From an uncultured Zetaproteobacteria bacterium (GTDB taxonomy: Bacteria; Pseudomonadota; Zetaproteobacteria; Mariprofundales; Mariprofundaceae): a DNA stretch of 64,000 nucleotides. The position numbers and the translations under genes were made by a program. This document shows, piece after piece, positions 6,068-47,825 of the stretch. Position 1 is the first letter of the stretch. Each line of letters starts with the position of its first letter. The DNA lies in contig CAZYAI010000001.1 of assembly GCA_964645625.1 (NCBI GenBank), forward strand, positions 52,968-116,967, in the 5' to 3' direction. The notes beneath the pieces were generated by a model. That model had not been told where the DNA came from. It was given only the letters and a program-made list of their open reading frames with translations, and searched no databases.

Positions 6068-6156
6068 GATTTTGTTTGAGAATGAAGTTTCCGCAATAGC
6101 TTTTTTCGTTCTCATCTTCTAGTTAACGCACAGTCTATTAAGGACAAAGTATTCAA

Positions 6157-6181
6157 AGACCCCGCATGGGGTCTTTTTTTA
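6157..6181 (+). terminator. rho-independent terminator after rpmB
   Basis: AAAGACCCCGCATGGGGTCTTTTTTT: a GC hairpin followed by a T-run. Confidence 0.7.
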
Positions 6182-6278
6182 TGCCCTGAATTCAGCTTAC
6201 ATGTTCCATTAACAAGTATGGCTTTATGAGGTACACTAGCAACGATATGCTATCGCACTGGGTGGCCAAGTTAGGAGA

Positions 6279-11996: not shown

Positions 11997-12040
11997 AAAT
12001 AACCTCGTTATTGAGCTGATGTTACGCACGGTATAGGAGC

Positions 12041-30263: not shown

Positions 30264-30920
30264 ATGGATAGTTTTTTAGTTAATATCAGCAGTTTCCCAA
30301 CGGCAATCTATACGACTTCTTTAGTCGTTGTGGTCGGTTACTGGTTATTCGCCTTGTTCGGTGCTTTAGATTTCGATGCCTTTGACGCTGATATTGATAT
30401 CGATGTGGACAGTGGCGTGAGTGACTTAAGTGGTGTTGCAGGATTCATGGCAACATTGGGTTTAACGGGTGTTCCGATCACCATTGTAATAAGCCTATTG
30501 TTACTCAATGCGTGGCTGGTTTGTTATTTCCTTGCGCTGTTTACCCCTGCATTGCCGCAGTTCGCTTCATGGATACTGTTCATCGTACACATGGGCGTGG
30601 TCATTGTCAGTTTTCTGGTGTCTATTTTACTTACTGCAATCATGATTAGACCACTACGGGGATTATTCCGCAAAGTGCACCAAGTACCAAAATCAATCTC
30701 TCTTTTAGGGGCAAGCTGTCGTATTCGAAGTAGTCGGGTGGATGGTGAATTTGGTGAGGCTGAGTGTCAAAATGAAGGCGCGAGCTTGATTATTAAGGTG
30801 CGGACAAGTAATGGTGAGGTGTTTGCTACGGGTGATCGGGCGGTAGTGATTGAACATAACCAACAAGATGACTTTTTTTATGTGGTGAGTGAAGAGGCTT
30901 TTCGACAGCGGATGGGTTGA
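30264..30920 (+). CDS. NfeD-like membrane protein (YqiJ-like), partner of the flotillin gene
   Basis: 218 aa. N-terminal TM helices, acidic DFDAFDADIDIDVDSG segment, and a C-terminal OB-fold-like soluble tail. Immediately precedes an SPFH/flotillin gene, as in yqiJ-yqiK. Confidence 0.6.
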   Translation: MDSFLVNISSFPTAIYTTSLVVVVGYWLFALFGALDFDAFDADIDIDVDSGVSDLSGVAGFMATLGLTGVPITIVISLLLLNAWLVCYFLALFTPALPQFASWILFIVHMGVVIVSFLVSILLTAIMIRPLRGLFRKVHQVPKSISLLGASCRIRSSRVDGEFGEAECQNEGASLIIKVRTSNGEVFATGDRAVVIEHNQQDDFFYVVSEEAFRQRMG

Positions 30921-30983: not shown

Positions 30984-33017
30984 ATGGAATTACTTTTACC
31001 GATATTGGTGTTTGGCGGCGTCGTATTAATCATATTGTTGGGGTTAGCATTTCTATTTAGCACTTTTTATAAAAAAGTACCTCAAGGCTATGCCTTGATT
31101 GTGAATGATATGTCTTCTAAACCCAAGGTGCATTTTACTGGTGGTTTGGTGTTACCGATTATTTATAAAATGGAAGTGATGCAAATTTCACTTATCACGT
31201 TAGAGATAGACCGTCGCGCAAATGATGGTTTGATCTGTCAAGACAACCTTCGGGCGGATATTACGGTTGCATTTTACCTACGGGTGAATGAAACTAGAGA
31301 TGATGTGCTTCGGGTTGCTAAGTCTATTGGTGTTGATCGCGCATCGGACAAAGAGGCAGTTAATGAGCTCTTTGGTGCTAAATTTTCCGAGGCGTTAAAG
31401 ACCGTGGGTAAGAAAATGGCTTTTCTTGACCTGTTTGAAAATAGAATTCAATTCAGGGAAAAAATCATCGAAGTGATTGGCGATGACTTAAATGGTTACG
31501 TGCTAGAAGATGTGGCGATTGATTACCTAGAGCAGACACCGAAGGCTAAACTTGATCCGAATAATATTCTTGATTCTGAGGGTATTAAAAAGATCACCGA
31601 AATTACAGCAGCTCAGAATGTTCAGACCAATCGCCTAGAAAAAGATGAGCAGTTAGCGATTACTAAAAAGAATGTTGAGACTCGTGAAGCGATGCTGGCT
31701 TTAGAGCGGCAACAGGTCGATGCTGAATCCAAACAAAAGCGCGAAATCCAGACTGTACAGGCGCGTGAAGCTGCCGAGACGAAAAAGGTTCAAGAGGAAG
31801 AACGCCTTAAAGCTGAACAAGCGAGGATTGAGACGGATGAGCAATTGGAGATACGTAATCAGGTTAAAATTCGTCAGGTTGAGATAGCAGAGCAAAACCG
31901 AGCACGCGCCATTGCGATTGAAAAAGAGAAGGTGATTCGTGCGCAAGAAATGGAAGAAGTGAATCGCCACCGTGAAGTGGAGTTGGCGGAAATTGATAAA
32001 AACAAGGCGTTGGAAGAAGAGAAGAAGATTATATCACATATTATTAGCGAACGGATTGCGGTGGATAAAAAGGTAACCGAAGAGGAAGAGCGGATTAAAG
32101 AGGTGAAGGAGGTTTCTGAAGCCGATCGCTTAAGGCAGGTTCGAGTGTTAGCGGCTGAAGCTTCAGCCAAAGAGGAATTGGTACATACGGTGATGCGTGC
32201 CGAGGCTGATGAGCAGAAAGCTATCCATAAGGCACGTGAAATTAACGTGATGGCACAAGCAGAGTTGGAAGCTGCATCGAAGAAAGCAGAAGCCGATAAA
32301 AAGTTAGCTGAAGGGGCACAGGCAACCGCTGCTGCCGCTGGGCTTGCTGAAGCTCGGGTGATGGAAGCAAAAGCCGACGCTAAGGAAAAAGAAGGTATCG
32401 TCGAAGCTCACGTGCAGGAAGTTAAGGCTGATGCCAAACAGAAAGAGGGGGTTGCTGAGGCGAATATTCAGCAGGCTAAAGCAATTTCAGCAGAAAAAGA
32501 GGGACTAGCAGAAGCTCGGGTATTGGAAGAAAAGTTGACTGCTGAAGCGCGTGGTCAGGAAGAGCTGGGTAAGGCTCAAGCAGTGACTGAGAAAGAAGTC
32601 GGTATGAGTAAGGCAGAAGTATTGCGAGCAAAAGGTAAAGCTGAAGCTGATGCCTTGATCGAAAAGTTTGCTGCTATGAACAATATGAATAAGGAATCAC
32701 GTGAGTTTGAAGAGTTCCGCTTGAACTTGGAAGCTCATTTGCAAGAAGTGATGGCATCTATTGCTGCGAATAAAGATATTGCAGGGGATCAAGCCAATGT
32801 ACTGGCTGCCGCACTTGAAAAAGCCAATATCGACATTGTTGGTGGTCAGGGCGATTACTTTGATAAACTCGCCAAAGGCATGGGCGCAGGCAATGCAGTG
32901 AATGGTTTCATCGAGAAAAGCCCTATTGTGCAAGCTTTGATGGAAAAACTGCTGGGCGGTGCCAATGCTGTACCTAAGCATGTTCCTGATTCGGGTCACC
33001 ATGACGCAGCGAGTTGA
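30984..33017 (+). CDS. flotillin-like SPFH/Band-7 protein (YqiK/FloT-like) with a long repetitive coiled-coil
   Basis: 677 aa. N-terminal TM, then an SPFH core (...GLICQDNLRADITVAFYLRVNE...). Extended E/A/K-rich heptad region including ~17-aa tandem repeats (AKADAKEKEGIVEAHVQEV / KADAKQKEGVAEANIQQ / AKAISAEKEGLAEARVLEE). Confidence 0.8.
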   Translation: MELLLPILVFGGVVLIILLGLAFLFSTFYKKVPQGYALIVNDMSSKPKVHFTGGLVLPIIYKMEVMQISLITLEIDRRANDGLICQDNLRADITVAFYLRVNETRDDVLRVAKSIGVDRASDKEAVNELFGAKFSEALKTVGKKMAFLDLFENRIQFREKIIEVIGDDLNGYVLEDVAIDYLEQTPKAKLDPNNILDSEGIKKITEITAAQNVQTNRLEKDEQLAITKKNVETREAMLALERQQVDAESKQKREIQTVQAREAAETKKVQEEERLKAEQARIETDEQLEIRNQVKIRQVEIAEQNRARAIAIEKEKVIRAQEMEEVNRHREVELAEIDKNKALEEEKKIISHIISERIAVDKKVTEEEERIKEVKEVSEADRLRQVRVLAAEASAKEELVHTVMRAEADEQKAIHKAREINVMAQAELEAASKKAEADKKLAEGAQATAAAAGLAEARVMEAKADAKEKEGIVEAHVQEVKADAKQKEGVAEANIQQAKAISAEKEGLAEARVLEEKLTAEARGQEELGKAQAVTEKEVGMSKAEVLRAKGKAEADALIEKFAAMNNMNKESREFEEFRLNLEAHLQEVMASIAANKDIAGDQANVLAAALEKANIDIVGGQGDYFDKLAKGMGAGNAVNGFIEKSPIVQALMEKLLGGANAVPKHVPDSGHHDAAS

Positions 33018-33084
33018 TGTGGGTCGCTTTTTGGTCTGTGCGATTGCACCGTTTCGTTTAGACTCCTAAACAACGAGGTCATGT

Positions 33085-34005
33085 ATGCAGTTTTTGAACC
33101 CTAAAACAGATTTTGCTTTTAAACGTATTTTTGGCTCGACGGAAAGTGCGGATATTTTGCTCAGCTTCCTCAATGCTATTTTGGACTTGGAGTCGCCGTA
33201 TCGCATTGCTGATGTGGAGATTATTGATCCTTATTTAGCACCTAAAATCAAGGGTATGAAAGACACCTATTTGGATGTTCGCGCCCGCGATGAACAGGGC
33301 AAGGCGTACATCATCGAAATGCAGGTGCTGAACGTTGAAGGCTTTGAGAAACGTGTATTATACAATGCGTGTAAAAGTTATGCGGGGCAACTTCATCAAG
33401 GCGAACATTATCAACACCTGAGCGATGTGATTGCGATTACCATCACCGATTTTGTGATGTTCCCTGAGCAAAAGAGCATCGTTAATAGCTTTAAATTGCG
33501 TGCCGAAAACGGTTTGGTGTACCACGATGATTTAGAACTGATTTTTGCTGAGTTGCCCAAGTTTAAGCGTTCAGAGGACGAGTTGGAAACGTTGTTAGAT
33601 AAATGGTTTTACTTCCTCAAATGTGCGGGTGATTTGCGCGCTATTCCTAAAGTGTTGGCAGGTGAAGGTGCGATCAATCACGCATTTGTGATTGCCAATA
33701 AAGCAGGCTTAAGTCGTGAGGAGTTGGACGACCAAGAACGGCGAGAGATTTTCATCCAAGATCAACGCGGCGCATTGCAACTGGCAAAAAGAGTAGGCAA
33801 AGAAGAAGGCTTGAAGGAAGGTAAAGAAGAGGGTCTGAAGGAAGGGGTGGAACAGGGAATAGAACAAGGTGAACGCTTAGCCGCCCAACGTATTGCAAGT
33901 AGTTTTCTTGATATACTCGACGACCAAACGATTGCCCAGAAAACAGGGCTAAACCTTGATGATGTACAGGCGTTGCGTCAGCAAAACAACGATCGTGTTC
34001 AATGA
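33085..34005 (+). CDS. Rpn/YhgA-like recombination-promoting nuclease (PD-(D/E)XK 'putative transposase' family), copy 2
   Basis: 306 aa, near-identical to copy 3 and ~90% identical to copy 1. C-terminal region carries 2 KEEGLKEG-type repeats. Confidence 0.85.
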   Translation: MQFLNPKTDFAFKRIFGSTESADILLSFLNAILDLESPYRIADVEIIDPYLAPKIKGMKDTYLDVRARDEQGKAYIIEMQVLNVEGFEKRVLYNACKSYAGQLHQGEHYQHLSDVIAITITDFVMFPEQKSIVNSFKLRAENGLVYHDDLELIFAELPKFKRSEDELETLLDKWFYFLKCAGDLRAIPKVLAGEGAINHAFVIANKAGLSREELDDQERREIFIQDQRGALQLAKRVGKEEGLKEGKEEGLKEGVEQGIEQGERLAAQRIASSFLDILDDQTIAQKTGLNLDDVQALRQQNNDRVQ

Positions 34006-34049
34006 TGATTGTGCCGTTTCGGATAGATTCCTAAACAACGAGGTGATGT

Positions 34050-34985
34050 ATGCAGTTTTTGAACCCTAAAACAGATTTTGCTTTTAAACGTATTTTTGGC
34101 TCGACGGAAAGTGCGGATATTTTGCTCAGCTTCCTCAATGCTATTTTGGACTTGGAGTCGCCGTATCGCATTGCTGATGTGGAGATTATTGATCCTTATT
34201 TAGCACCTAAAATCAAGGGTATGAAAGACACCTATTTGGATGTTCGCGCCCGCGATGAACAGGGCAAGGCGTACATCATCGAAATGCAGGTGCTGAACGT
34301 TGAAGGCTTTGAGAAACGTGTATTATACAATGCGTGTAAAAGTTATGCGGGGCAACTTCATCAAGGCGAACATTATCAACACCTGAGCGATGTGATTGCG
34401 ATTACCATCACCGATTTTGTGATGTTCCCTGAGCAAAAGAGCATCGTTAATAGCTTTAAATTGCGTGCCGAAAACGGTTTGGTGTACCACGATGATTTAG
34501 AACTGATTTTTGCTGAGTTGCCCAAGTTTAAGCGTTCAGAGGACGAGTTGGAAACGTTGTTAGATAAATGGTTTTACTTCCTCAAATGTGCGGGTGATTT
34601 GCGCGCTATTCCTAAAGTGTTGGCAGGTGAAGGTGCGATCAATCACGCATTTGTGATTGCCAATAAAGCAGGCTTAAGTCGTGAGGAGTTGGACGACCAA
34701 GAACGGCGAGAGATTTTCATCCAAGATCAACGCGGCGCATTGCAACTGGCAAAAAGAGTAGGCAAAGAAGAGGGTTTGAAGGAAGGTAAAAAAGAGGGCC
34801 TGAAGGAAGGCAAAGAAGAGGGCCTGAAGGAAGGAGTGGAACAGGGAATAGAACAAGGTGAACGTTTAGCCGCCCAACGTATTGCAAGTAGTTTTCTTGA
34901 TATACTCGATGATCAAACGATTGCCCAGAAAACTGGTCTAAGCCTTGAAGATGTACACATGCTGCGTCAGCAAAACAGCATGTAA
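34050..34985 (+). CDS. Rpn/YhgA-like recombination-promoting nuclease, copy 3 (tandem duplicate of copy 2)
   Basis: 311 aa, identical to copy 2 over the first ~240 aa. 3 KEEGLKEG-type repeats instead of 2. Divergent last ~20 aa. Same 5' leader CCGTTTCG..TAGA.TCCTAAACAACGAGGT.ATGT. Confidence 0.85.
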   Translation: MQFLNPKTDFAFKRIFGSTESADILLSFLNAILDLESPYRIADVEIIDPYLAPKIKGMKDTYLDVRARDEQGKAYIIEMQVLNVEGFEKRVLYNACKSYAGQLHQGEHYQHLSDVIAITITDFVMFPEQKSIVNSFKLRAENGLVYHDDLELIFAELPKFKRSEDELETLLDKWFYFLKCAGDLRAIPKVLAGEGAINHAFVIANKAGLSREELDDQERREIFIQDQRGALQLAKRVGKEEGLKEGKKEGLKEGKEEGLKEGVEQGIEQGERLAAQRIASSFLDILDDQTIAQKTGLSLEDVHMLRQQNSM

Positions 34986-35049
34986 TGTACATTCCTTTAC
35001 CTCATCGGATGCTACGTTTAAAAGCTAACTTCATGGCAGGGGCTTACAC

Positions 35050-38000
35050 GTGACTGATCAAACTGAACATACAACGATATCTGAACAGGCCGTTGCAGAA
35101 GGCGGCGCGTATGAGGTGATACGTCAGCGTTTAAATACACAGCAGCAATCACTTGAAACGTTCATTAACGAGCTTAACCACAAGCGACAGCAGGAATTTG
35201 GAAGCACCGAAATGAAGGTGCTCGGACGCATGCGGTTGAGAACAGAGAACAACTGTCAGGCGCAAGATTTGGTGTTGGTTGGTGAATACGTCCTGTTTGC
35301 TTATAATGTTCATATCGGCTTGAGGAAGGAAACGCGCATCGAAGATGTGCTTGCTCTTTACACTTTGGTAGAGCAAAACGGTGAATACGATTTGCGCTCG
35401 GTTGCTATCAAAGATTCTTTTCTGGCGGATCACCGTTTTCAAAGCGATTTTCAAGAACTGTATGCTTATTACAAAGATACTTCGCTGTCCCAATTGGTGT
35501 TTAAACACAATAAGCTTATTGCATCGTTTCAGATTGGTGAAAAATTATCAGACGTGCGCGTTTTCCGCTGGGAAGTATCCGATGATGGTCAGCGCGTTGA
35601 TTATATCGATAATCGTGGTGAGCGTGATCTTCGCCTACCAGCCAGCCATGATTTTGAATGGGTGCAGTGTCATCGTGACGATGTGGTCGATGGGCGAAAT
35701 CCGCATATTAACATACTCGATACCTTGTTTGTGGATGCCTCACGTGGCGATATTACGATTAAGGTGGAAGATAACACCAATGTCGGTCTTGGTATTTATT
35801 CCGAACCCGTACAAGAAAAGAATCAGGCTTTGGATGATGCCGAGTTTTATTACGCCGACCTGCAACAACTCATCCTGTTAAAAATCAAGCCTTACCGTGA
35901 AGAGCATTATCGTTATTTGATATATAATCGTAACAATCAGCAAGTGCAACGCATGGATGCTATTGGCGATGCCTGTGTTCAATTACCTGAGGATCACGGT
36001 ATTATTTTCCCTGGTGGTTATTACTTAACCACGGGCGAAATGAAAACCTTTGAAGGTAATCTTGAGCATCTGGTCTATAAACGTGCCATGCGTTCCCCCA
36101 ATGGTGAAGATGTGCTTTATATCTTTTACCAGCCTGAATCCAATGTGATTGTCATGTATGGTTACAATCTGATCGAAAAGTCCTTGCAAAACCCTTTGAT
36201 TGGTCACGGTTATGGCTTTTATGATGATGGTCGGATGATTATTTTTTATGCCGATGATGAGCCTAAACGGGTACACCCTTTGCAAATTTGGCAAACCCCT
36301 TATTGCAGCGAAGTGCATGCCAGCAGGCAAACTGTGGCGCATAGTTTTTATGGTAACATTGGCAATGCTGAACTGGTACGCGGTATTTCTGAGTTGTACA
36401 GCATCAGCAGGAGCATGCGTTCAACCGATGTTTCTTCTGAACACTACCATCGCCTCAGTCAGGCCTGTAGTAAGATTTTTGATAGTTATTATTGGTTAGA
36501 TTCCCCCGAGTTGAAGGGCATCGCCACATTGCTGCGGGAAGTTGCCAGTACTGCTGAGCTGGTGCTTGATGAGTATGAAAAGGTCGAAAGCATTCGTGCC
36601 CAGTCGCGCAAAGCATTGCAGGAGGCTGAAGCGAAGCAACGTGAAATGATTCGTCAAATTACTCCTGATAGCTGGCATGCGCCACAGGCGTTTGTCGATG
36701 GCTTGTTTAGCATACGGCAGCATCGTGGGCATTTGATGACGATCAAATCCTATCGTTATATGGATGTCGCGAAAATCAACCAGCTGGATGCCGATATTGC
36801 AGCGGTAGAGCTTGATTTAAATCAAAAAACCGTAGCTTTCTTGGCTTCTGAAGGCGCGCTTTCCAGCTATGATAAGGTGTTGGATCGCGTTGCGAGCGAA
36901 CGCCTTACCTGCAAAACCCATGCCGAACTTAAACCGCATGTTGAAGCACTTCAGCAATTGGCAGCAGCACTGGATTTGATTGCCGAAATGATGGCATCGC
37001 TCAAGGTGGATGATGCAACGGTGCAAACGCGCATTGTCGATGCGATTTCTGAACTGTATAGCCGCTTGAATCAACAAAAGGCAGAGCTGGAACATCAACG
37101 TAAAAGCGTTGGCAGTGCTGAGGCTGCGGCGCAATTTTCGGCACGGCTTAAGTTACTGAATCAAAGTATGAATAACGCGCTTGGTATGGCAAAGACGCCA
37201 GCGAGCAGTGACGAGCAGTTTTCTCGGCTGCTGGTGCAGTTAGAAGAGCTTGAAGCGGAATTTAGTGACTACGATGATTTTATCGCCGACGTTATTAAAA
37301 AACGTGAAACGATATTCGATGCCTTTGAGGCTCATAAACAGCGGTTGATTGATGCGCAGCAACGTAAGGCACAATCCCTCGCCGATGCTGGCACACGCAT
37401 CTTGCAGAGCGTGCAACGGCGCGTTAAACGCTTCACCACCCAAGAAGAATTAAACACCTTTTTCAGTGGCGATAGTCTGATCAGGAAGGTCAGCGACACC
37501 ATTGAAACATTAAGATCCTTGGATGATAGCGTCAAAGCCGAAGACCTTGATGCGCAATTCAAAGCAATCAGGGAGCAATCCATCCGTTCCCTGCGTGATA
37601 AAAGTGATCTTTATGAATCGGGTGGTCAGCTGATTAAACTTGGCCCACGTCATAAGTTTTCGGTCAACACGCAGGATCTGGATCTCACCATTTTACCCAA
37701 GGGCGATGCCTTATTTATCCGCCTAACAGGTACCGATTATTGTGAGGTACTGGATGATGATGCGCTGAATGCTAAGCGTGCGTATTGGTCGATGGAGCTT
37801 CCTTCTGAAAGTGCGCAGCTTTGTCGTGCTGAATACTTGGCTTATAGCATCTTGCAGGCGGCCAAAAGGCAACAACAGGGTCTTGATTGGCAAGGTTTGG
37901 CGCAAGCTGCCACAGATGCAAAAAGCATGCTGGCGTTGGTCGCAGCATTTGCCGCACCTCGTTATAAAGAGGGGTATGAAAAAGGTATTCACGATCATGA

Positions 38001-40317
38001 TGCCAGCCTGATGTTGCAAAAAATCGTACCTGTTTATGAAACAGCAGGAAGCTTTAAATACGCGCCTGCTGCGCGTGGGCTGGCGGCAATCTATTGGGCG
38101 AATAAATATAATGGGGCGCAGCAACAGCGATGGCCGCAACGGGCTAGGAATGCAGCGCAGATGATGCAGGTTTTTGCTGATTCTAAGGCGCAAACTATCC
38201 TGAGCCTAGAGATTGCGGATGATTTGAGGGCTTTTGTCGCTGAGCATCAATTACCCGCAGATGAACGCGTGTTGACTCGTGCCAGTGAATACTTGAGCGA
38301 TGAATTGGCACAAGAACGGGTGGCTTTTGCGACCACCAAATATGCGCGCTACCTCTGCGATGCTTTTGTCACCCACTTAAAAACGCACAATATCTGGCGC
38401 GATTATGAAACAGCATTGGATGCTATGAAGGGGCAGGTCGGTAAACGTTGGGCGTTGGCAGAAAGTTGGTTGACTGCCTTTGTGCAGTCACAGCATAAGC
38501 CGCAATACAGCAGTTTTATCGCCGAAGCGATTGGCATACTGAACGCAGAACAACGTATTGATCGTGTTGATCGTGAATGTGATGTGCAGCTCACCATCGA
38601 AGGTTTGTTGGCAAGGCATCATAAGATCGAAAATCGCCAACTGACCATTCAACTGGATCAGTTTTTGGATGATAATCGTCATCATATCGAACAGGTGATA
38701 CCTGCCTACGAAGATTATTTGCAAGCGCGCCAGCGCATGATGATTGAAAGGCGTGAAGCTTTGGGGCTGGAGTCATTCAAGGCTAAACCCTTGGCATCGT
38801 TTGTCCGCAATCGGCTCATCAATGAGGTTTATTTGCCTTTGATTGGCGATAATCTGGCCAAACAGATTGGCACAGTAGGCGATAAAAAACGTTCGGACTT
38901 GATGGGTTTATTGCTTATGATCTCGCCGCCAGGTTATGGTAAAACAACGTTGATGGAATACGTGGCTGATCGCTTGGGGCTTATTTTTATGAAGATTAAC
39001 TGCCCTGTGATTGGTCACACCATCACCGCTGTGGATCCACAACAGGCGGATAATAGTGCTGCCCGCCAAGAGCTAGAGAAATTGAACCTAGCATTGGAAA
39101 TGGGCAATAATGTGATGTTGTACCTCGATGATATTCAACATACCAACAGCGAGTTTTTGCAAAAGTTTATTTCGTTATCCGATGGTACGCGCCGCATCGA
39201 AGGGGTGTGGAAAAAACGACCTAAAACGTATGATATGCGCGGCAAGAAGTTCTGCGTGGTGATGGCAGGTAATCCTTACACCGAATCAGGCGAAGCCTTC
39301 CAGATCCCTGACATGCTTGCCAACCGTGCTGATATTTACAATTTGGGTGACGTATTGAGTGGCAAAGAGGCGGTGTTTGAACTCAGTTATATCGAAAATG
39401 CTTTGACCTCCAATCCTGTGTTGGCGCCGCTGGCGACGCGAGACATGGCGGATGTTTACAGATTCCTTGAGATGGTCGATGGCGCAAACATAGCCAGCAC
39501 GGATTTATCTCACCCTTACAGCAGTGCCGAGATCAAAGAAATTGTTGATGTGTTACGCAAAATGAAAGTCATTCAAGGCATTGTATGGAAGGTCAACCAA
39601 GCTTACATCGCCGCCAGTGCGCAGGATGATAAGTACCGCACCGAACCAACATTTAAGTTGCAAGGTTCGTACCGAAACATGAATAAAATGGCAGAAAAAA
39701 TATCGGCAATTATGAGCGATGATGAACTGATGCACCTCGTGGACGATCACTACCAAGGTGAGGCGCAATTGTTGACCACAGGCACGGAAGCCAACCTACT
39801 CAAGCTGGCGGAGATTCGCGCTCGCATGAATGCGCAACAGCAGCAACGTTGGACGCAAATCAAAGCTGATTTTATGCGCAATAAAGCGATGGGCGGTGAT
39901 GATGCCGATGTAGGCAGTAAAATTGTGGTGCAGCTCAATGACTTGGTGGCAGGCATCCATGCTTGGCGAGAAAGCCTTGAACAATCGCATGCCGCAGCAC
40001 ATGAGTCGCAAAATCGCGAACTGCTGGTGAGTAGAGAACAAAATAGTAAAGCGTTGAACAATATCGCCAGGGCTATTGCTCGTGTGGCAGCGCATATAAA
40101 AGCAGAAACGCAGGGCGAAGCGGCTACATCCGCCGATCATATACCATTGGAAAGCCTTACGCATCTACTGGAACATACCTTACACCCGTTGATCAAAATC
40201 ATGTATGGCAAACTTGATTTGGATTTAGGAACGCACAAGAACATGGCGGATATTAACCGAAAATTGGCAGTTATTGATTCATTGGTCAGAAACAAGAAGC
40301 CAAGAACAAAGTCTTGA
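35050..40317 (+). CDS. giant (1755 aa) protein with a single MoxR/AAA_5-type AAA+ ATPase module at ~aa 1290-1480 and ~1250 aa of unassigned N-terminal sequence, including a long coiled-coil
   Basis: Walker A LLMISPPGYGKTTLM (nt ~38925). Walker B VMLYLDDIQH. Sensor region FCVVMAGNPYTESGEAFQIPDMLANRADIY, the same ..NP..(G)...P pattern as CbbQ (VISYNPGYQ) and MoxR (ATQNP). Residues ~560-900 are heptad-rich. One uninterrupted ORF with coding composition throughout. Confidence 0.7.
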   Translation: MTDQTEHTTISEQAVAEGGAYEVIRQRLNTQQQSLETFINELNHKRQQEFGSTEMKVLGRMRLRTENNCQAQDLVLVGEYVLFAYNVHIGLRKETRIEDVLALYTLVEQNGEYDLRSVAIKDSFLADHRFQSDFQELYAYYKDTSLSQLVFKHNKLIASFQIGEKLSDVRVFRWEVSDDGQRVDYIDNRGERDLRLPASHDFEWVQCHRDDVVDGRNPHINILDTLFVDASRGDITIKVEDNTNVGLGIYSEPVQEKNQALDDAEFYYADLQQLILLKIKPYREEHYRYLIYNRNNQQVQRMDAIGDACVQLPEDHGIIFPGGYYLTTGEMKTFEGNLEHLVYKRAMRSPNGEDVLYIFYQPESNVIVMYGYNLIEKSLQNPLIGHGYGFYDDGRMIIFYADDEPKRVHPLQIWQTPYCSEVHASRQTVAHSFYGNIGNAELVRGISELYSISRSMRSTDVSSEHYHRLSQACSKIFDSYYWLDSPELKGIATLLREVASTAELVLDEYEKVESIRAQSRKALQEAEAKQREMIRQITPDSWHAPQAFVDGLFSIRQHRGHLMTIKSYRYMDVAKINQLDADIAAVELDLNQKTVAFLASEGALSSYDKVLDRVASERLTCKTHAELKPHVEALQQLAAALDLIAEMMASLKVDDATVQTRIVDAISELYSRLNQQKAELEHQRKSVGSAEAAAQFSARLKLLNQSMNNALGMAKTPASSDEQFSRLLVQLEELEAEFSDYDDFIADVIKKRETIFDAFEAHKQRLIDAQQRKAQSLADAGTRILQSVQRRVKRFTTQEELNTFFSGDSLIRKVSDTIETLRSLDDSVKAEDLDAQFKAIREQSIRSLRDKSDLYESGGQLIKLGPRHKFSVNTQDLDLTILPKGDALFIRLTGTDYCEVLDDDALNAKRAYWSMELPSESAQLCRAEYLAYSILQAAKRQQQGLDWQGLAQAATDAKSMLALVAAFAAPRYKEGYEKGIHDHDASLMLQKIVPVYETAGSFKYAPAARGLAAIYWANKYNGAQQQRWPQRARNAAQMMQVFADSKAQTILSLEIADDLRAFVAEHQLPADERVLTRASEYLSDELAQERVAFATTKYARYLCDAFVTHLKTHNIWRDYETALDAMKGQVGKRWALAESWLTAFVQSQHKPQYSSFIAEAIGILNAEQRIDRVDRECDVQLTIEGLLARHHKIENRQLTIQLDQFLDDNRHHIEQVIPAYEDYLQARQRMMIERREALGLESFKAKPLASFVRNRLINEVYLPLIGDNLAKQIGTVGDKKRSDLMGLLLMISPPGYGKTTLMEYVADRLGLIFMKINCPVIGHTITAVDPQQADNSAARQELEKLNLALEMGNNVMLYLDDIQHTNSEFLQKFISLSDGTRRIEGVWKKRPKTYDMRGKKFCVVMAGNPYTESGEAFQIPDMLANRADIYNLGDVLSGKEAVFELSYIENALTSNPVLAPLATRDMADVYRFLEMVDGANIASTDLSHPYSSAEIKEIVDVLRKMKVIQGIVWKVNQAYIAASAQDDKYRTEPTFKLQGSYRNMNKMAEKISAIMSDDELMHLVDDHYQGEAQLLTTGTEANLLKLAEIRARMNAQQQQRWTQIKADFMRNKAMGGDDADVGSKIVVQLNDLVAGIHAWRESLEQSHAAAHESQNRELLVSREQNSKALNNIARAIARVAAHIKAETQGEAATSADHIPLESLTHLLEHTLHPLIKIMYGKLDLDLGTHKNMADINRKLAVIDSLVRNKKPRTKS

Positions 40318-40389: not shown

Positions 40390-42654
40390 CTACTTGGTGA
40401 GTGAGATAAACAACTCAGGCAGTTTTTGTGGCAACTTATCTACATGGTCAATGACGGCATAGCGTTTGTCGAAAATATCCGTGACATATTCATCTGCTTT
40501 GGGATCAAGTGAGATGCAGTAGGTGAAAATACCATCGCGATCCAGCTCATTCACGGCTTGTTTACTGTCTTCGATCAACATGCGTTCATCATCAACATCA
40601 ATGTCGGATGGTTGCCCATCTGTGAGTACCAATAACAGCTTTTTGTCCGCACGCTGGTTCTTTAAGTAATGTCCTGCATGGCGAACAGCAGCACCCATGC
40701 GCGTGGAGTAGCCTGCTTGCATGGCCGCTAGTCGGGCTTTTACTGTGTCTCCCCATGGTTCACTGAAACCTTTGATATGGTAATAACGCACATCGTGGCG
40801 GGTGTTGGAATGGAAACCACCGATGGAGAAGGGGTCGCCCAATTGTCCAATAGACCAACCTAATAGGGATACAGCTTCTTGCGAGAGTTGCAAAATGGTT
40901 TGCTCTGTTCCAGCAGCCTTATCATCAAGTGATTGAGATAGATCCAACAATAGCGATACAGCGATATTTCTACCATCCGTCTTGTGTGACATATTCACAC
41001 GAGGGTCAGGGGTAGAGCCGCTTTTGAGGTCAATCAAAGAGCGAAGCGCAACATCTAAATCTAATTCGCTGCCCTCTTCTTGAAAGCGTATGCGCGTTTT
41101 ATCTTGTGGCTTCAAACTGTCGAGTACTCGCTTTAGGCGTTTTGCCAAAGCACTGTGTTTGTCCAAAAGCGAGTCAATGTATGAGGCTGAACCTTGGCTG
41201 TGTAGGGATTCGTATACACTGACCCAATCAGGGCGATAATGTTGTGAGGCATAATCCCATTCATGGTAATGGCGTGGCGGTAGTGCATGAATCTCTTCAC
41301 TGTCTTCTTTTTGCTGGTTGAGGTGATCAAACTCCTCTTCTTCATCTCCTGCTTCGATATAAATCCATAAATGTCGGTTATCGTCTCGGTAGCTGACCTC
41401 GGTGTTGCGGAAGTAAATATGCGGCAACAAGTCATTTTGTGTACGTGTTTTGGCGATGAATAATAGTGCCAGCTCCGCCATTTTTGGACTACTGGATTCA
41501 TTGTCTTTTAAGGCGTGGACAATGCGTTCCGCAAAATCTCGAATGATTGGGTGTTTTACCTCAAAATTGGGGTCAAGCACCTTACGAGATAATAAAGCTA
41601 GGCGAAGGCGTATGGTTGACCATGAGTCAAGGTTTAGGTCATCTTCATTAGGGATGGGATGCAGGCGCAAGTAAGTGTCATACAGCCCTGGGTATTGACG
41701 TAGGGTGAGTAGATCAATGCGGCAATCTTCAAAGGTTTCTACAGCAATCCGCTGAAACGGACTCCAGTTATCCACCACCATACGCTCACTCCAGCGACGG
41801 TGTGCACACATGTGTGCTAACACTGCGCGGTAACGGTCAATACCTTTAATGCCATTGAGGTCATCAAAAACATCGGGAATGCGTATGCCAAGCTCATCAA
41901 AGTAAGGCATGGGTTTACGTAGTTCATCAAACGCGAGAGAGTAGGGAACTAAATAATCATGTTCACCCCATAAGGCGCGTAGATATAGATCCAGCTTGCG
42001 TTCATTCTCCATAAACAGTGTGCCATGACGTTCACGTTGTAACATGGCACGCGAGTCGGCCGACTGCAGGGAGAAAAAGTCCTTTTGTCGACCAGGGTGA
42101 CTGATGTAGTAAGTAACGCCGTAATTGATCCAGTTGCGCAAGCCTTGCAATGTTACCAAAGAGAGTAGGTGTGGTGCTTGCTTGAGTAGTTCAGGCATGC
42201 CTGGGCTAGGGAATGTTGTGTGGTGACCATGCACAGAGCCAGTGGTGCGCTCAGCAAACTCTTTAAGCAAATCAATATATGATTCCATTAAGGCTTGTGT
42301 TTTTAAATATCGACTGACTTCTGCAAGCGTTTGTAAAAATGGAACGATAGACGGTGCATTGGTATTTCGTGCCAAGTGCCAGACAAAGTCCTTAACGATG
42401 GAGAGCATTGCTTCCCCCGTGTTGGAAACAACAGTAGGCATTTCTTCAAGGTAAATGAGAATAGGATCAGCACCGCGTCCCATTTTGCCTAAAAAAGAGG
42501 CATTGTCGATGTAGTCATCTAAGCCACTGGGTGACAATACGAGTTTCGCTTCTGTGAGGCACTCAGAAAACACACTCTTCACCTGTGGGAAGTTTGAGTT
42601 TAAACGTTCCCAATAGGCTAAATCATGCTCGGGTATTTGTACTGTATCAGCCAT
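40390..42654 (-). CDS. cbbO: RuBisCO activase subunit CbbO (C-terminal von Willebrand A domain)
   Basis: 754 aa. C-terminal VWA with MIDAS (LLLDLSQSLDDK ... VLTDGQPSDIDVDD). Immediately downstream of cbbQ. Confidence 0.85.
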   Translation of the reverse strand: MADTVQIPEHDLAYWERLNSNFPQVKSVFSECLTEAKLVLSPSGLDDYIDNASFLGKMGRGADPILIYLEEMPTVVSNTGEAMLSIVKDFVWHLARNTNAPSIVPFLQTLAEVSRYLKTQALMESYIDLLKEFAERTTGSVHGHHTTFPSPGMPELLKQAPHLLSLVTLQGLRNWINYGVTYYISHPGRQKDFFSLQSADSRAMLQRERHGTLFMENERKLDLYLRALWGEHDYLVPYSLAFDELRKPMPYFDELGIRIPDVFDDLNGIKGIDRYRAVLAHMCAHRRWSERMVVDNWSPFQRIAVETFEDCRIDLLTLRQYPGLYDTYLRLHPIPNEDDLNLDSWSTIRLRLALLSRKVLDPNFEVKHPIIRDFAERIVHALKDNESSSPKMAELALLFIAKTRTQNDLLPHIYFRNTEVSYRDDNRHLWIYIEAGDEEEEFDHLNQQKEDSEEIHALPPRHYHEWDYASQHYRPDWVSVYESLHSQGSASYIDSLLDKHSALAKRLKRVLDSLKPQDKTRIRFQEEGSELDLDVALRSLIDLKSGSTPDPRVNMSHKTDGRNIAVSLLLDLSQSLDDKAAGTEQTILQLSQEAVSLLGWSIGQLGDPFSIGGFHSNTRHDVRYYHIKGFSEPWGDTVKARLAAMQAGYSTRMGAAVRHAGHYLKNQRADKKLLLVLTDGQPSDIDVDDERMLIEDSKQAVNELDRDGIFTYCISLDPKADEYVTDIFDKRYAVIDHVDKLPQKLPELFISLTK

Positions 42655-42667
42655 AGTAGATGACTCC

Positions 42668-43471
42668 TTAGCCGAAGGTTACAGTAATAGTATTATCCAA
42701 GGTTTCACGAATGTCGGCATCATCAGTGATCGGACGAACCATAGCCATACGACATGCAGCTTTGGCTTCGACCCCTTGATTAATCAACGTTGCAGCATAA
42801 ACCAATAGGCGAGTGGAGATACCTTCATCCAGACCGTGACCTTTCAAGTTCCTTGCTGCTGTACCAATGCTTACCAATTTCTCTGCTATATCTGCTGCTA
42901 AGCCTGTTTCGTTGCAGATAATTTCTTGTTCGACGGCTGCCGATGCATAGTCAAAGTCAAAGCCAGTAAATCGTTGTTTGGTGGATTGCTTCAGGTCTTT
43001 CATCAAGCTTTGATAGCCAGGGTTGTAGGAGATGACTAACTGGAAGTCTGGGTGGGCTTCGACCAATTCACCTTTTTTGTCCAGTGGTAGGGTGCGACGG
43101 TGATCGGTTAATGGGTGAATAATCACAGTGGTATCTTGTCTGGCTTCTACGACCTCATCCAAGTAGCAAATGGCACCAATACGTGCTGCTGTAGTCAGCG
43201 GACCATCGAGCCAACGTGTGCCGTTGCTATCAAGCAGGTAACGACCAACCAAGTCTGAGGCTGTCATATCTTCATTGCAAGCAACGGTAATCAGCGGTTT
43301 GCCGAGTTTCCAAGCCATGTATTCAACAAAACGAGATTTGCCGCATCCTGTTGGTCCCTTAACCATCACAGGCAAGCGCGCTGCGTAAGCCGCCGAATAC
43401 AACTCAATTTCATCAGCCTGTGCTTGATAAAAAGGTTCCTTTTGGATTTCATATTGTTTTTTATCGTTCAT
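42668..43471 (-). CDS. cbbQ: RuBisCO activase ATPase CbbQ (MoxR-class AAA+)
   Basis: Walker A VKGPTGCGKSRFVEYMA. Walker B ICYLDEV. Sensor LVISYNPGYQS. ATG at 43471 has an AGGAG RBS. The listed ORF start at 43510 is an upstream extension. Confidence 0.9.
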   Translation of the reverse strand: MNDKKQYEIQKEPFYQAQADEIELYSAAYAARLPVMVKGPTGCGKSRFVEYMAWKLGKPLITVACNEDMTASDLVGRYLLDSNGTRWLDGPLTTAARIGAICYLDEVVEARQDTTVIIHPLTDHRRTLPLDKKGELVEAHPDFQLVISYNPGYQSLMKDLKQSTKQRFTGFDFDYASAAVEQEIICNETGLAADIAEKLVSIGTAARNLKGHGLDEGISTRLLVYAATLINQGVEAKAACRMAMVRPITDDADIRETLDNTITVTFG

Positions 43472-43630
43472 TTTCAATACTCCTAGATGATTGCTTGAAG
43501 GGGCGAGCACTCAGCCCGTATGATTCTTCCATCGTTGTTGTGTGGCACTGTGTTGTTGCTGATATAAAAAAAGGGGCCTCACATAGGAGACCCCTTTATT
43601 ATGTGAAGAGCCTAAGCCCTACAGAGGGTT

Positions 43631-45037
43631 TTACTTATGAACACCCAATTTTTCACGCCAATCAGCGTAAAGCTTATCAGAGTCACCAGGGAAGGACTCA
43701 AAGGCACGTGCAAACTCGTTGTGAGTCTTAGCGTACTCAATAGGATCAGTACCTTCTTTCCAGCATTCGTATGCTTGGCTCAAAGATTTCGCACCAGCTG
43801 CAGGGGAATCAATATGACCGTAAGCACCACCACCACAGGTGTTAATGACGTTGCCATGACCCAAGTTTTCAAAGAAACCAGGCAGACGCAGTGCATTCAT
43901 GCCGCCAGAGATGATCGCTACAGTTGGCTTCATGCCATACCATTTCTGGTTGAAGTAGTTACCCATGCATTCGTCACGTTCCAGCATGTAAGCCAAAACA
44001 GTTTCACCAGAATGACCTTCCATTTTACCGTAGCCCATGGTTCCTGTGTGGATACCAGAAGCACCAATCAGACGTGCGAACTTCATGAATACCAAGGGAT
44101 CCATACCCATAGGCGTTTTGTACGAGGTGATAGAGCCATGACCCGCACGATGATAATGCAGGAATGTATCTGGGAAGTGACGACGGCAAGTGGTTACACC
44201 GTGTGGACCAGTCACAAAGCCATCAACCAAGAATGCTAAGTGATCTTCGTTGCCATATTTGCCGAATGTTTCTTTTACAAACTCGCCACGAGCAACCATT
44301 TCTTGGTGGCAGTCAGAGGTGATGTTCGCAGAAAAGATTTTGGCTTCGCCAGTCTCTTGTTGTGCACGATCCATGGCTTCAGCAACCAATGGAAGTACTT
44401 CTTTCATTGGGCAGAAGCTCTGGTTACCTTGAGGCTCATCATTTTTGATGAAGTCGCCACCCAACCAGAATTGGTAAGCAGCAGCAGCAAATGGTTTTGG
44501 ACGCAAACCAAGCTTAGGTTTAATAATGGTACCAGAGATGTAACCGCCATCAACTTCAGGGCGACCCAAAACTTTCCACAGATCTTTGATGCCAACGCTA
44601 GGACCATCAAACTTCTTAACCATGATTTCAGGGATCATGAAGTCAAGCAGGCGCAAGCCAACATGGTCGCCCATGCCTTGGTTGTTACCCAAGATCAATG
44701 ACCACATCTGAGACAGCATGTAGTTGCCATCGGTGATGTTAATATCAAACAATTCAACAGGGTAAGCGATCTTCATCAGACCGAACCCATCTTCAAAGGC
44801 ACTTTCATCAATAGAGTACACCAGAGCATCAACGCCCTTAGTGAAATCATCGGTCGTGCAAACTTCAACGTTTGTTCCTGTAGAAGATTCTGCTGCAATA
44901 TGTGCAGCAACTTCCAAGAAACCATAGCCTGGAGCAGTTTTCAATTTGTAAGCGGTCAGGAAGTGCTTACCGCCTGCAATGAGATCTTCTTCTTTCAGGC
45001 TTAAATCGGAATAACGATTGGATTGGTCTAATGCCAT
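43631..45037 (-). CDS. cbbM: ribulose-1,5-bisphosphate carboxylase/oxygenase, form II
   Basis: 468 aa: [74 protein letters not shown]... collinear with form II RuBisCO (Rhodospirillum rubrum-type), including [14 protein letters not shown] and HYHRAGHG motifs. Confidence 0.95.
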
Positions 45038-45182
45038 TTTGGTCCCTCTTTATTGCAAACCACAGTGTAAACAGTGTGGCGTGATGTTCACCTCGTGCTG
45101 CATTAGCAGCGGCGATGGGCGAAGTATGGGAAATTTTACCATTAAGTAAAATAACACATTTTTATTTATCTATAAATAAAGT

Positions 45183-47825
45183 TTATAAATCATGTAAGGC
45201 ATGATGAACCACCTGACTTAGTTCTTCAGGGCTATAGGGTTTGCTGAGTATGGGGTGGCTTACATCCAGCTCGTGTTGTGTTTGTTCAGGGTCGTAGCCT
45301 GTGGCAAAAACAATGCGTACATCAGGGTGTTGCTCGCGTAATAAACGCGCCGCCCTTACTCCGCCCATAATGGGCATGACCACATCCAAGAGCAGTAGAT
45401 CGACTTCTAGCTGATGTTTGTGGTAAAGGGTGATGGCTTGCTCACCATTGCGCGCTTGAATGACACGGTAACCGAGCTGTTCCAACATGCCACTGACGGC
45501 GATTAAAGCGTGGTTGTCGTCATCGGCAACCAAAATACATTCACCATGACCATGCAGTATAGGTGTGCTAGCTGGTGTGGCTTCAGGTTCGGTGTCAACC
45601 AAAGGAAGGTCGATATGGAAGCTTGTCCCTGTGCCCGGTGTGCTTTCAATGGTGATTGTACCATGATGGGCTGCAACCACCGATTTCACCATCGTAAGCC
45701 CTAAGCCTGTGCCTTTGTCTTCATTCTTGGTGCTATAAAAGGGTTCAAAAACAGATCGTAGCTCATCGTCAGTCATGCCGCGCCCATTGTCCGATACGCT
45801 TAGACGCGCAACTTTTTGACCATCGTCAAACGGGCTGTCGCTGTCGTCATGCTTGTGGATATAATGTTCGTTTAACTCGACTAAAATATGCGCACTGGAA
45901 CAGCCAATGGTGGCATCGTGGGCATTATTGACCAAATTCATCAGTACTTGCTGTAATTGCGTGGCATTGCCAATGATTTGCATCGGTTCTTGAGCAAAGG
46001 TGATGGTTAATCCCACCCGTTCTGGCAGGGCTGCGCGATGCAGTTTGAGTGCTTCACGCATGATGGTGTTGATGGTTAATACCGTCATAGCAACGGAATC
46101 TTGGCGTGAAAAGTGCAGCATTTGCTGTATCATCTCGGAGGCTTGAAAGCATAAGGCTTCGCTGTGATGGATGTGTGTGGCAACATCATCTTGTTCGACT
46201 AACTTTACGCCCGCCAAGTACAAATGCCCGACTAAGCCAGTGATGACATTGTTAAAGTCGTGGGCGATTCCTCCCACCATCGCGCCTAAAGCAGCCATCT
46301 TTTGGTGCTGGTAGATAGCAAAGTCATGTTCGCGTTGCGCTGTAATATCCAGCAACAAGGTGTTGCAATGTGATGTTTGACCACGGGTGTTATAAATGGC
46401 CGCGCTGTACGCACGCACCCAGCGGGTTTCTCCATTGGCACTGATGACTCTAAATGGTGTGTGTTCCACATGTGGACAATGATGATTTAATTGCGCCAGC
46501 TTGCTTAACACGGCGGCTTGGTCTTCTGCGTGTAGCCATGATGTCCAAGCACTGTTGACTAATATTTTGGCTGGCTGTTGCAGCAGTTTTTCTATGTTGG
46601 CGGTGGCAAAGTCAATGGCATAATCCTGTTCGGCTAAGCAGCTATGACGCACCAGCATGGCAGGCCCTGCTTCAAACAGATCACCTTGTAAAATCGGGGA
46701 GGTCGTTACTGCTTCGCCAGTAGCTGTGTTTTTGCGGCGACGAATTTTACGGCTGATACCAACGGTAGCACATTGCGAATCTTGTTGTTGTAAGGGCGTT
46801 TCGTGTGTTTCTAAGGGGTGGCTGTAGCCGTGACAGTCAATACCTTCGTCGGTCAAACTGTGCGGTTTGCCTGATTGTACGACCTGTCGGTGTAGGTTTT
46901 GTAGTCGCGTGCTGCGCTCGGCACTGAATACATGGCGATCCGTTTTGCCTAATACTGTTTTTTTGCGTAGCCCAACAAAGCTGGCAAAGGCTTGGTTGCA
47001 GCCTAAGTAGTAGCCTTTTTTATCTTTGTAATAAATAAGGTCAGGAATGGAATCGAGCAGGTCGGTGAGGAATTGTTTGGCATGGATCAAACGCATCTCA
47101 TATTGCTGTCGCTCGTTGGCATCAATGGCTACACCGATCAAGCCTGCGACTTGACCACCATTGTCGTAATACGGGGCAAGGAATACATCCAACTGTACAC
47201 CGTGAATGGGCAACACATCGCGCACCACACTGCCTTCGCTGGCGCGGTAGAGGGCATGGCTCATCTCGGGGCAACTTTGGAATACATCAAAGATATTACG
47301 CCCTGTTGCTAAACCGTGAGAGAATTCAGGCAGTGCCAAGCAATCACCTTCGGATACTTCAATAAACCCCGATGCTTGGGTTTGGAAAATCACCCCCTGT
47401 TCACGCAAACTAAATTGCTGAAACTTACGCGTATGGCGATCACTTAGGGCGATGATGGGTTCAGGGATGCCTGCTTCTGCTTTGGGTAAGGAAGGTTCCA
47501 TGGTGAGTAGCAAACCGCAACGTTGTTGCTCATGGTTACGTAGGGTTGCCAAACGCCAATAACTGTGTTGAACGCTGACTTTGTCGGGGTAATCGTCCTG
47601 TTGCCAGCGGGCGATTGCCTCGCGAAACATGGCTTCGCGTTGTTCTTGAGGGTCAACAGAGAAGTATAAACGGTCACTGAAAAAGGGGACGGGCTTATGG
47701 TGGAAGTCAGCAAACGCTTGGTTCACGCGAATCATGCGGAACTCATAATCCATATAGGCAATCGGTGTCGAAATATGATCGAGGATTTCTCCCGACCAGT
47801 TGGCGATTGATAGCTTGTCAGACAC
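45183..47825 (-). CDS. PAS-domain hybrid sensor histidine kinase with C-terminal receiver, immediately upstream of cbbM
   Basis: 880 aa. PAS blocks. H-box GIAHDFNNVITGLVGHLYL. N/G boxes (LMNLVNNAHDAT, GTGLGLTMV). Receiver ILVADDDNHALIAVSGML...LLLLDVVMP. Confidence 0.85.
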   Translation of the reverse strand: MSDKLSIANWSGEILDHISTPIAYMDYEFRMIRVNQAFADFHHKPVPFFSDRLYFSVDPQEQREAMFREAIARWQQDDYPDKVSVQHSYWRLATLRNHEQQRCGLLLTMEPSLPKAEAGIPEPIIALSDRHTRKFQQFSLREQGVIFQTQASGFIEVSEGDCLALPEFSHGLATGRNIFDVFQSCPEMSHALYRASEGSVVRDVLPIHGVQLDVFLAPYYDNGGQVAGLIGVAIDANERQQYEMRLIHAKQFLTDLLDSIPDLIYYKDKKGYYLGCNQAFASFVGLRKKTVLGKTDRHVFSAERSTRLQNLHRQVVQSGKPHSLTDEGIDCHGYSHPLETHETPLQQQDSQCATVGISRKIRRRKNTATGEAVTTSPILQGDLFEAGPAMLVRHSCLAEQDYAIDFATANIEKLLQQPAKILVNSAWTSWLHAEDQAAVLSKLAQLNHHCPHVEHTPFRVISANGETRWVRAYSAAIYNTRGQTSHCNTLLLDITAQREHDFAIYQHQKMAALGAMVGGIAHDFNNVITGLVGHLYLAGVKLVEQDDVATHIHHSEALCFQASEMIQQMLHFSRQDSVAMTVLTINTIMREALKLHRAALPERVGLTITFAQEPMQIIGNATQLQQVLMNLVNNAHDATIGCSSAHILVELNEHYIHKHDDSDSPFDDGQKVARLSVSDNGRGMTDDELRSVFEPFYSTKNEDKGTGLGLTMVKSVVAAHHGTITIESTPGTGTSFHIDLPLVDTEPEATPASTPILHGHGECILVADDDNHALIAVSGMLEQLGYRVIQARNGEQAITLYHKHQLEVDLLLLDVVMPIMGGVRAARLLREQHPDVRIVFATGYDPEQTQHELDVSHPILSKPYSPEELSQVVHHALHDL

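Follow-up and report, generated by a model that had tools for sequence, protein, structure and literature searches.

The window analysed here is a stretch of 64,000 nucleotides (nt) from an uncultured Zetaproteobacteria bacterium (assembly GCA_964645625.1, contig CAZYAI010000001.1, positions 52,968 to 116,967). It carries a very long gene for an AAA+ ATPase which, judging from its identity and its genomic context, is very probably a subunit of a conserved three-gene membrane module, together with a YqiJ/NfeD-like protein and a YqiK-like flotillin encoded upstream of it. The features of the locus are the following (window positions; residue numbers refer to the ATPase, and structural statements to AlphaFold2 models, whose confidence is given as the predicted local distance difference test, pLDDT):

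30264 to 30920, plus strand: YqiJ/NfeD-like small inner-membrane protein of 218 amino acids (aa), neighbour cluster c2, first gene of the module in this genome.
30984 to 33017, plus strand: YqiK-like flotillin of 677 aa, neighbour cluster c1.
33042 to 34985, plus strand: two tandem Rpn-family PD-(D/E)XK genes (33085 to 34005 and 34050 to 34985) in a 965-nt duplicated unit.
35050 to 40317, plus strand: ATPase open reading frame (ORF), DUF3686-family beta-propeller, coiled coil and AAA+ ATPase, 1755 aa.
35152 to 36492, plus strand: N-terminal beta-propeller domain, residues 35-481, Pfam DUF3686 (PF12458 match and AlphaFold2 model).
36310 to 37593, plus strand: helical bundle and coiled-coil region, residues 421-848, including DUF7902 (residues 603-686, 36856 to 37107).
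37825 to 38547, plus strand: all-helical domain, residues 926-1166, confidently predicted (pLDDT about 90 or more).
38887 to 39369, plus strand: AAA+ ATPase core, residues 1280-1440, with Walker A at 38923 to 38949, Walker B at 39115 to 39141 and the sensor-1/Arg block at 39256 to 39342.
39370 to 40314, plus strand: AAA+ lid and conserved helical region to about residue 1620, then a variable C-terminal helical tail modelled with low confidence.

The ATPase is encoded by one unbroken frame which begins with GTG and stops at 40317. Both the GTG and the start region of the gene are common to the window and to its closest relative, L083, a metagenome contig with an ATPase of 81% identity. An earlier note on this DNA had described a giant ORF with a single AAA+ module, a beta-rich N-terminus and a coiled coil, and in this respect it was right: the ORF is real and intact, and the motifs it quoted lie where it placed them, i.e., SPPGYGKTT (Walker A) at residues 1292-1300, MLYLDDIQH (Walker B) at 1356-1364 and the sensor block VVMAGNPYTESGEAFQIPDMLANRADIY at 1403-1430. 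AlphaFold2 was run on two overlapping halves of the protein with 42-sequence alignments (mean pLDDT 79 and 76.5), and the beta-rich part is indeed followed in the models by about 430 aa of long helices. From the N- to the C-terminus, the following parts are predicted: (i) a helix (residues ~20-50); (ii) a beta-propeller-like domain of about 25 strands (~56-415) with a disordered loop at 210-262; (iii) long helical bundles and coiled coils with DUF7902 (421-848); (iv) a small beta unit (~867-900); (v) a very confident all-helical domain (926-1166); (vi) the AAA+ core (~1280-1440), with a beta-hairpin before sensor 1 (1382-1395); (vii) the lid and a conserved helical region (~1440-1620); and (viii) a variable, low-confidence helical tail (1620-1755).

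The same note had regarded the protein as an orphan in which nothing outside the AAA+ module matched a familiar family, and here it was mistaken. Pfam PF12458 (DUF3686) matches residues 35-481 over model positions 2-448 of 448 (E = 2.3e-188), and PF25472 (DUF7902) matches residues 603-686 (E = 2e-22). The all-helical domain of residues 926-1166 has no Pfam match and no recognisable relative. Fold searches with the N-terminal model returned generic beta-propellers and helical bundles, with nothing pointing to function (the propellers found by Foldseek, at E = 1e-5 to 1e-3, were prolyl oligopeptidase, WD40/IFT-A and a trilobed protease), and a profile search of the PDB with the ATPase gave nothing useful, its sole match being the P-loop of RuvB (E = 0.056).

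That the ATPase has an AAA+ fold is certain. Its assignment to the MoxR/AAA_5 class, as formerly proposed, is plausible and goes no further: at residues 1288-1411 the Pfam AAA_5 model does score above its cut-off (25.7 bits against 22) and its match spans more of its own model, but the PF00004 AAA model scores equally (25.7 bits, cut-off 21.2). Structurally, the MoxR clade is marked by a helix-2 insert, a hairpin before sensor 1 and an insert before sensor 2. The hairpin predicted before sensor 1 places the protein in a broad group that holds both ClpB/Lon-type and MoxR/dynein-type ATPases.

Across 67 distant full-length representatives of the family, there is essentially no variation in the Walker A, Walker B, sensor-1 and Arg-block residues. 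The family motifs SPPGYGKTT, DDIQH, AGNPYTE and PDMLANRAD are invariant in these members, and all four occur in the window protein. Median identity to the distant members is highest in the AAA+ core (69%) and falls to 45% at residues 1440-1620, 38% in the propeller, 25% in the helical domain of residues 926-1166 (the least conserved folded region) and 16% at residues 1620-1755. Since the core is invariant whereas the propeller and the helical domain are less conserved, such conservation suggests that the ATPase is active and that its putative recognition domains diversify.

The family has many members: the search of a large protein collection scored over 4,700 homologs, of which the best 120 are mostly 1,720-1,810 aa long, 53-81% identical and colinear with the window protein, of which they cover 81-100% (mostly 99-100%). 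A fusion artefact, a possibility that the note had allowed for, is thus not at issue. With the N-terminal 500 residues alone, 714 cluster representatives (50% identity) were found at E <= 1e-3, and 236 at E <= 1e-30; the full-length representatives among them are mostly 1,600-1,900 aa long. In an alignment of 14 ATPase sequences, mean column identity is 68%. The nearest homologs derive from marine metagenomes and metagenome-assembled genomes (MAGs) labelled Mariprofundaceae, Gammaproteobacteria or Kangiellaceae, and full-length relatives were found by tblastn in Proteus, Pseudomonas, Halomonas, Vibrio, Photobacterium, Deinococcus, Streptomyces, Nonomuraea and Hymenobacter. By sequence, then, the window ATPase is an ordinary member of a widespread, catalogued family, DUF3686. 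The best 120 homologs go by the names "DNA repair ATPase", "AAA family ATPase" and "MoxR-like ATPase" in their source records.

Eighty genome loci with relatives of the ATPase were fetched, ORFs were called in them, and the neighbouring genes were clustered and searched with the window proteins; upstream frequencies refer to the 69 loci in which 3.5 kb or more of upstream sequence was available, or to the 66 with 6 kb or more. A flotillin gene (c1, ~660 aa) lies directly upstream of the ATPase gene and on the same strand in 65 of the 69 loci, and a YqiJ-like gene (c2, ~220 aa), also on the ATPase strand, just ahead of the flotillin in 64. Three of the four loci without a called flotillin belong to high-GC Pseudomonas, where the crude ORF filter took an antisense frame. 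The window has both genes, upstream of the Rpn pair, at 30264-30920 and 30984-33017, and the earlier reading of this DNA had missed these two real partners.

The identity of the partners was established with profiles built from 33 orthologs each, which were compared by hhalign with proteins of the annotated Escherichia coli K-12 genome. For the 677-aa family, the comparison gave an alignment with YqiK over 386 columns (probability 99.9%, E = 8e-33), and for the 218-aa family one with YqiJ (probability 93.4%, E = 2.5e-7). The window flotillin has an N-terminal membrane anchor, an SPFH/band-7 region and a long coiled coil rich in Ala, Glu and Lys. Pfam gave no match for the two window proteins even at E = 10; among their relatives, a few flotillin-family members match Flot and Band_7 weakly, and the Cellvibrio ortholog of the 218-aa protein matches YqiJ_N. 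A sequence search of the PDB with the two profiles found no solved structure.

Fuller operons are common in other genomes. DUF2170/YjfI and PspA/IM30 genes each precede the YqiJ-like/flotillin pair in 40 of the 66 loci, and rhomboid, PLD/HKD, zinc-ribbon and ~79-aa small genes are each present in about one quarter to one third of the loci, usually downstream of the ATPase. In Hymenobacter (Bacteroidota) the order is Tir-like chaperone, PspA, DUF1449, hypothetical protein and "DNA repair ATPase"; in Streptomyces it is hypothetical protein, "flotillin family protein" and "DNA repair ATPase". Two lineage-specific additions to the operon were also observed: (i) a 92-aa gene of the PHA_gran_rgn family directly 3' of the ATPase gene in Kangiellaceae and Psychromonas (15293-15571 in locus L005; also in L003, L004, L006-L008 and L039); and (ii) a 106-aa protein without a Pfam match (cluster c20), encoded between PspA and the YqiJ-like gene in several loci. 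Profiles of DUF2170 and PspA (from 44 and 41 neighbours, respectively) found no match in a six-frame translation of the window, and glnD lies directly upstream of the YqiJ-like gene, where the YjfI-PspA pair would be; hence, the window module is an abbreviated form without that pair.

What sets this locus apart is the pair of Rpn genes. Both match PF12784 PDDEXK_2 (E about 4e-50) and TIGR01784 (E = 5e-49 and 9e-51), all above the cut-offs. The first 300 nt of the 965-nt unit, at 33042-33341 and 34007-34306, form a direct repeat of 98% identity, and the two proteins are 96% identical, differing mainly by one 24-nt repeat unit. This in-frame tandem repeat encodes EGLKEGK-like units, of which there are two copies in the first gene (33795-33845) and three in the second (34760-34834); the region is also the source of spurious matches to FliH and Yae1_N. 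About 22 kb from the pair, on the minus strand (11133-12029) and beside the ferrochelatase gene (10095-11123, minus strand), there is a third gene of the Rpn family; it aligns with the other two across the coding sequence but is clearly more diverged from them than they are from each other. In this genome, Rpn is thus a family of several paralogs that is apparently mobile. The Logan contigs L001 and L002, from independent assemblies of this organism, both start within the second Rpn gene, which looks like an assembly break of the kind expected for a repeated element.

In L083, mutS, glnD, the 218-aa gene, the flotillin gene and the ATPase gene follow one another in this order, there is no Rpn gene, and the gap between flotillin and ATPase is 96 nt. 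The window has the widest gap observed between these two genes, 2,032 nt (median, 117 nt). Of the 83 sequences compared, it is also the only one with Rpn homologs beside the ATPase. The comparison identifies the Rpn pair as a recent insertion into the flotillin-ATPase spacer that was followed by a tandem duplication, itself recent as the 96% identity of the copies indicates. Just 5' of the ATPase start, a stretch of about 35 nt, CATCATGGCAGGGGCT(T)ACACGTGACTGATC, is kept in L083 despite the insertion (window 35020-35060; L083 9975-10010); it is probably the ribosome-binding region, and it marks the right-hand edge of the inserted segment.

Taken together, the conserved partners of the ATPase are a flotillin and a YqiJ/NfeD-like protein, so it belongs to a multi-gene membrane module and not to a single-protein conflict system. 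What the ATPase would do there can be proposed from the gene neighbourhood and by analogy, and that it is an ATP-driven remodeller of flotillin/PspA membrane assemblies is put at even odds. In such a mechanism, the AAA+ module would mediate oligomerisation of the ATPase; the propeller and the coiled-coil arm would attach it to flotillin (SPFH) assemblies on the inner membrane, from the cytoplasmic side, and, where present, to PspA/ESCRT-III-like polymers; and ATP hydrolysis would drive the assembly, disassembly or remodelling of the flotillin/PspA scaffolds in envelope stress. As a blend of the identity and context of the ATPase with this mechanism, membership in the module with a remodelling role is the best explanation overall, with a probability of roughly 0.65. 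The "unusual scaffolding ATPase" which the earlier note had offered as its fallback comes close to it.

Several points weigh against this explanation. No biochemical or structural study of the ATPase family, and no experiment on any member, was found in the literature. Deletion of the Pseudomonas aeruginosa flotillin PaFlo3, from the corresponding cluster, has a marginal phenotype, biofilm being reduced by about 20% (PMC13086221). In one locus, from a Methyloprofundus MAG (L033, 10001-15232), the ATPase occurs without a flotillin or YqiJ-like gene in about 10 kb of upstream sequence, so the family can be detached from its usual partners. PspA, DUF2170, rhomboid, PLD and zinc-ribbon genes are absent from the 64-kb window, and a link to PspA would need a gene elsewhere in the genome. 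Finally, the ~2-kb Rpn insertion might uncouple the ATPase from the flotillin transcriptionally; scans for promoters and terminators gave no clear candidates, the match counts being at or below shuffle expectation.

A more ambitious version holds that the family is the long-sought ATP-driven motor for bacterial flotillin and/or PspA assemblies, a functional counterpart of Vps4 or of FtsH in HflK/C: recognition of the scaffold would fall to the propeller/coiled-coil arm, and its disassembly or reshaping to the AAA+ ring. Argued by analogy, this version falls somewhat short of even odds and is put forward tentatively. The idea of a motor has already been proposed from gene neighbourhoods (PMC11237479), so it is not new. 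More speculative still is a variant of it in which the module would be a phage-triggered abortive-infection device acting at the membrane.

Among the alternatives, the one that survives best takes the whole flotillin-ATPase module as a conflict or abortive-infection system that senses phage-induced membrane damage, with the PLD/HKD hydrolase and the rhomboid protease of the fuller operons as effector-like genes. PA3728-PA3732, the corresponding genes of P. aeruginosa, were induced in all phage-infected samples (PMC12041424), the periphery of the operon is variable, and PLD, rhomboid and zinc-ribbon genes join it in about a third of the loci. Phage induction, however, is expected of any Psp-type envelope-stress response, and the window copy lacks the putative effector genes. 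A search with PADLOC (PADLOC-DB 2.0) gave no credible match: for the ATPase, the best was LmuB over the coiled coil (E = 2.7e-4), followed by IetA and mad8 over the P-loop (E > 0.01), and for its neighbours there was nothing or a low-complexity match only. The family is found in none of 50,697 phage records and in 13 of 72,556 plasmid records, and the gene sits among housekeeping genes with conserved synteny. A conflict role for the module is therefore considered unlikely.

Less probable still is that the protein acts on DNA, as its database name says. The name itself is the main support: PF12458 is entitled "ATPase involved in DNA repair" and many records read "DNA repair ATPase". To this can be added mutS, which precedes the module by two genes both here and in L083, and a weak similarity to the RuvB P-loop. 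The similarity, though, is confined to about 45 residues around the P-loop (E = 0.002-0.06), the mutS adjacency is confined to this lineage, profile searches detected no DNA-binding or nuclease domain in the ATPase, and in all phyla examined it is membrane proteins that are conserved as its partners. A full-text literature search for "DUF3686" found no paper. A role in DNA repair was rejected in view of the membrane partners, the lack of a detected DNA-binding domain and the lineage-restricted mutS adjacency; and, as neither domain content nor conserved neighbourhood supports them, both the Pfam title and the NCBI name look like a propagated misnomer.

The proposal of the earlier note, an anti-phage system that consists of one NTP-dependent protein and works with the Rpn nucleases beside it, has become scarcely credible. 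The two Rpn genes are indeed directly upstream of the ATPase gene, on its strand and with a spacer of 64 nt from the second one, and Rpn-family genes are often found in variable regions. But this adjacency is peculiar to the window, L083 has the short flotillin-ATPase gap and no Rpn gene, the near-identity of the two copies speaks for recent duplication, a further copy sits by the ferrochelatase gene, and the ATPase family is ancient and keeps other partners. The PADLOC and phage-record results, together with the membrane partners, tell equally against an anti-phage protein acting by itself, and comparative genomics largely refutes the coupling to Rpn. Nor is the setting a defence island, since the surroundings are housekeeping genes (mutS, glnD, RlmL, RNase E).

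The least likely alternative, a MoxR-type maturation chaperone for the VWA protein CbbO or for the RuBisCO activase system, can be dismissed because cbbO and cbbQ adjoin the ATPase gene in this organism's own contigs only (L083 has a transposase and unrelated genes there, and no cbbOQ), are on the opposite strand and already paired with each other, and share with the ATPase, in the case of CbbQ, an alignment by BLASTP and hhalign of about 32 residues around the P-loop, weak grounds for the "same pattern" once seen in the two proteins. A functional link of the ATPase to cbbQO, which is an unrelated neighbour, was rejected on the grounds of this organism-specific adjacency and self-pairing. As the earlier note had observed, cbbO, cbbQ and the form II RuBisCO gene converge on the ATPase gene from downstream, and there is no VWA gene in cis on the ATPase strand, the sole adjoining one being cbbO. 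Homologs beside Rpn or cbbQO, for which the note proposed to look, did not turn up in the other genomes compared. In short, comparison with other genomes dissolves the apparent oddities of the locus (orphan status, Rpn neighbours, cbbQO convergence).

The rest of the window consists of housekeeping and signalling genes (mutS, glnD, RlmL, ferrochelatase, RNase E, sensor kinases). On the minus strand, 40390-47825 holds the form II RuBisCO (cbbM)-cbbQ-cbbO cluster, which suggests a chemolithoautotroph, and, directly upstream of it on the same strand, a PAS/hybrid histidine kinase gene (45183-47825). Signalling genes are dense at 2161-10098, where they include (i) a 1164-aa hybrid histidine kinase with CBS and multiple PAS domains; (ii) an 892-aa hybrid kinase with an Hpt domain; and (iii) a response regulator fused to an adenylate/guanylate cyclase domain. 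A 446-aa ORF at 13861-15201 (plus strand) has no Pfam match at E = 1e-5, and a 998-aa protein encoded at 16617-19613 (minus strand) has only weak matches to Big_2 and DUF3869.

Taken alone, the window locus adds little, that is, one more copy of a catalogued family, with the recent Rpn insertion in its operon as the only special feature. The family, by contrast, merits attention: in Proteobacteria, Bacteroidota, Actinomycetota and Deinococcus, giant AAA+ proteins of some 1,750 aa whose catalytic core hardly varies are associated with flotillin/NfeD pairs and, in many cases, with PspA as well. They are obvious candidates for the energy-consuming component in the turnover of bacterial flotillin/PspA assemblies, and the misleading database name "DNA repair ATPase" should be flagged.

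As for known systems, the MoxR-class AAA+ ATPases (CbbQ, NorQ, RavA) are counted among the closest; canonical members work with a separate VWA partner, whereas the conserved neighbour clusters of the window ATPase (c1-c8) include no VWA protein. FtsH works inside HflK/C cages and Vps4 works on ESCRT-III, and with HflK/C-FtsH and ESCRT-III-Vps4 the likeness is one of functional analogy and no more: the AAA+ motor has genetic links with an SPFH scaffold and, in many genomes, with PspA, a polymer of the ESCRT-III superfamily. In contrast to FtsH and Vps4, the window ATPase has no protease domain, transmembrane anchor or MIT domain, and homology with them is limited to the generic AAA+ fold. The E. 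coli pair yqiJ-yqiK (NfeD-like protein and flotillin) is homologous to the window pair and in the same order; unlike in the window, no giant ATPase gene adjoins the annotated yqiJK locus of strain K-12.

A closer match to the window module is the Psp-like "biofilm-associated cluster" bacABCDEF of P. aeruginosa (PA3732-PA3727/8; PA14_16140-16200). The genes bacA-F are co-transcribed, the products of bacB-bacF rise 6- to 13-fold in a bacA mutant, and the cluster has been linked to biofilm formation, rhamnolipid production and virulence (PMC10948618). A short NfeD protein is the partner of its flotillin, PA14_16180 or PaFlo3 (PMC13086221). The locus of P. paraeruginosa (L049) encodes, in succession, DUF2170, PspA, a YqiJ-like protein, a flotillin and a 1746-aa homolog 53% identical to the window ATPase. 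The place of this homolog fits PA3728; by gene order, the P. aeruginosa ATPase is probably bacE (PA3728), with bacF as the alternative. Mutations in PA3728, annotated as "ATPase", recur among cystic-fibrosis isolates (PMC8190622, PMC4199492). The window differs from the bac operon in that it has no equivalents of bacA and bacB, and no sigma-54 site was found upstream of 30264.

The closest description of all is that of Ravi et al. (mSystems 2024; PMC11237479), whose comparative genomics of Psp systems defined operons of a CesT/Tir(YjfI)-PspA dyad plus three further genes, with a "beta-propeller + coiled-coil + AAA+ ATPase" next to YqiJ/YuaF and band-7/flotillin genes. They proposed a chaperone-like or ATP-dependent role in membrane-associated assemblies, with remodelling of membranes or complexes, and reported abbreviated operons (flotillin, YqiJ/YuaF and sometimes the ATPase only) as more widely distributed. 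Compared with the PspA-type operons, the window has no PspA, DUF2170, PLD or rhomboid gene within its 64 kb, and it also differs in the two Rpn genes between flotillin and ATPase. Otherwise, the ATPase has the same domain order and length, the YqiJ-like protein and the flotillin are its immediate partners, and the window module is the "abbreviated operon" of that study.

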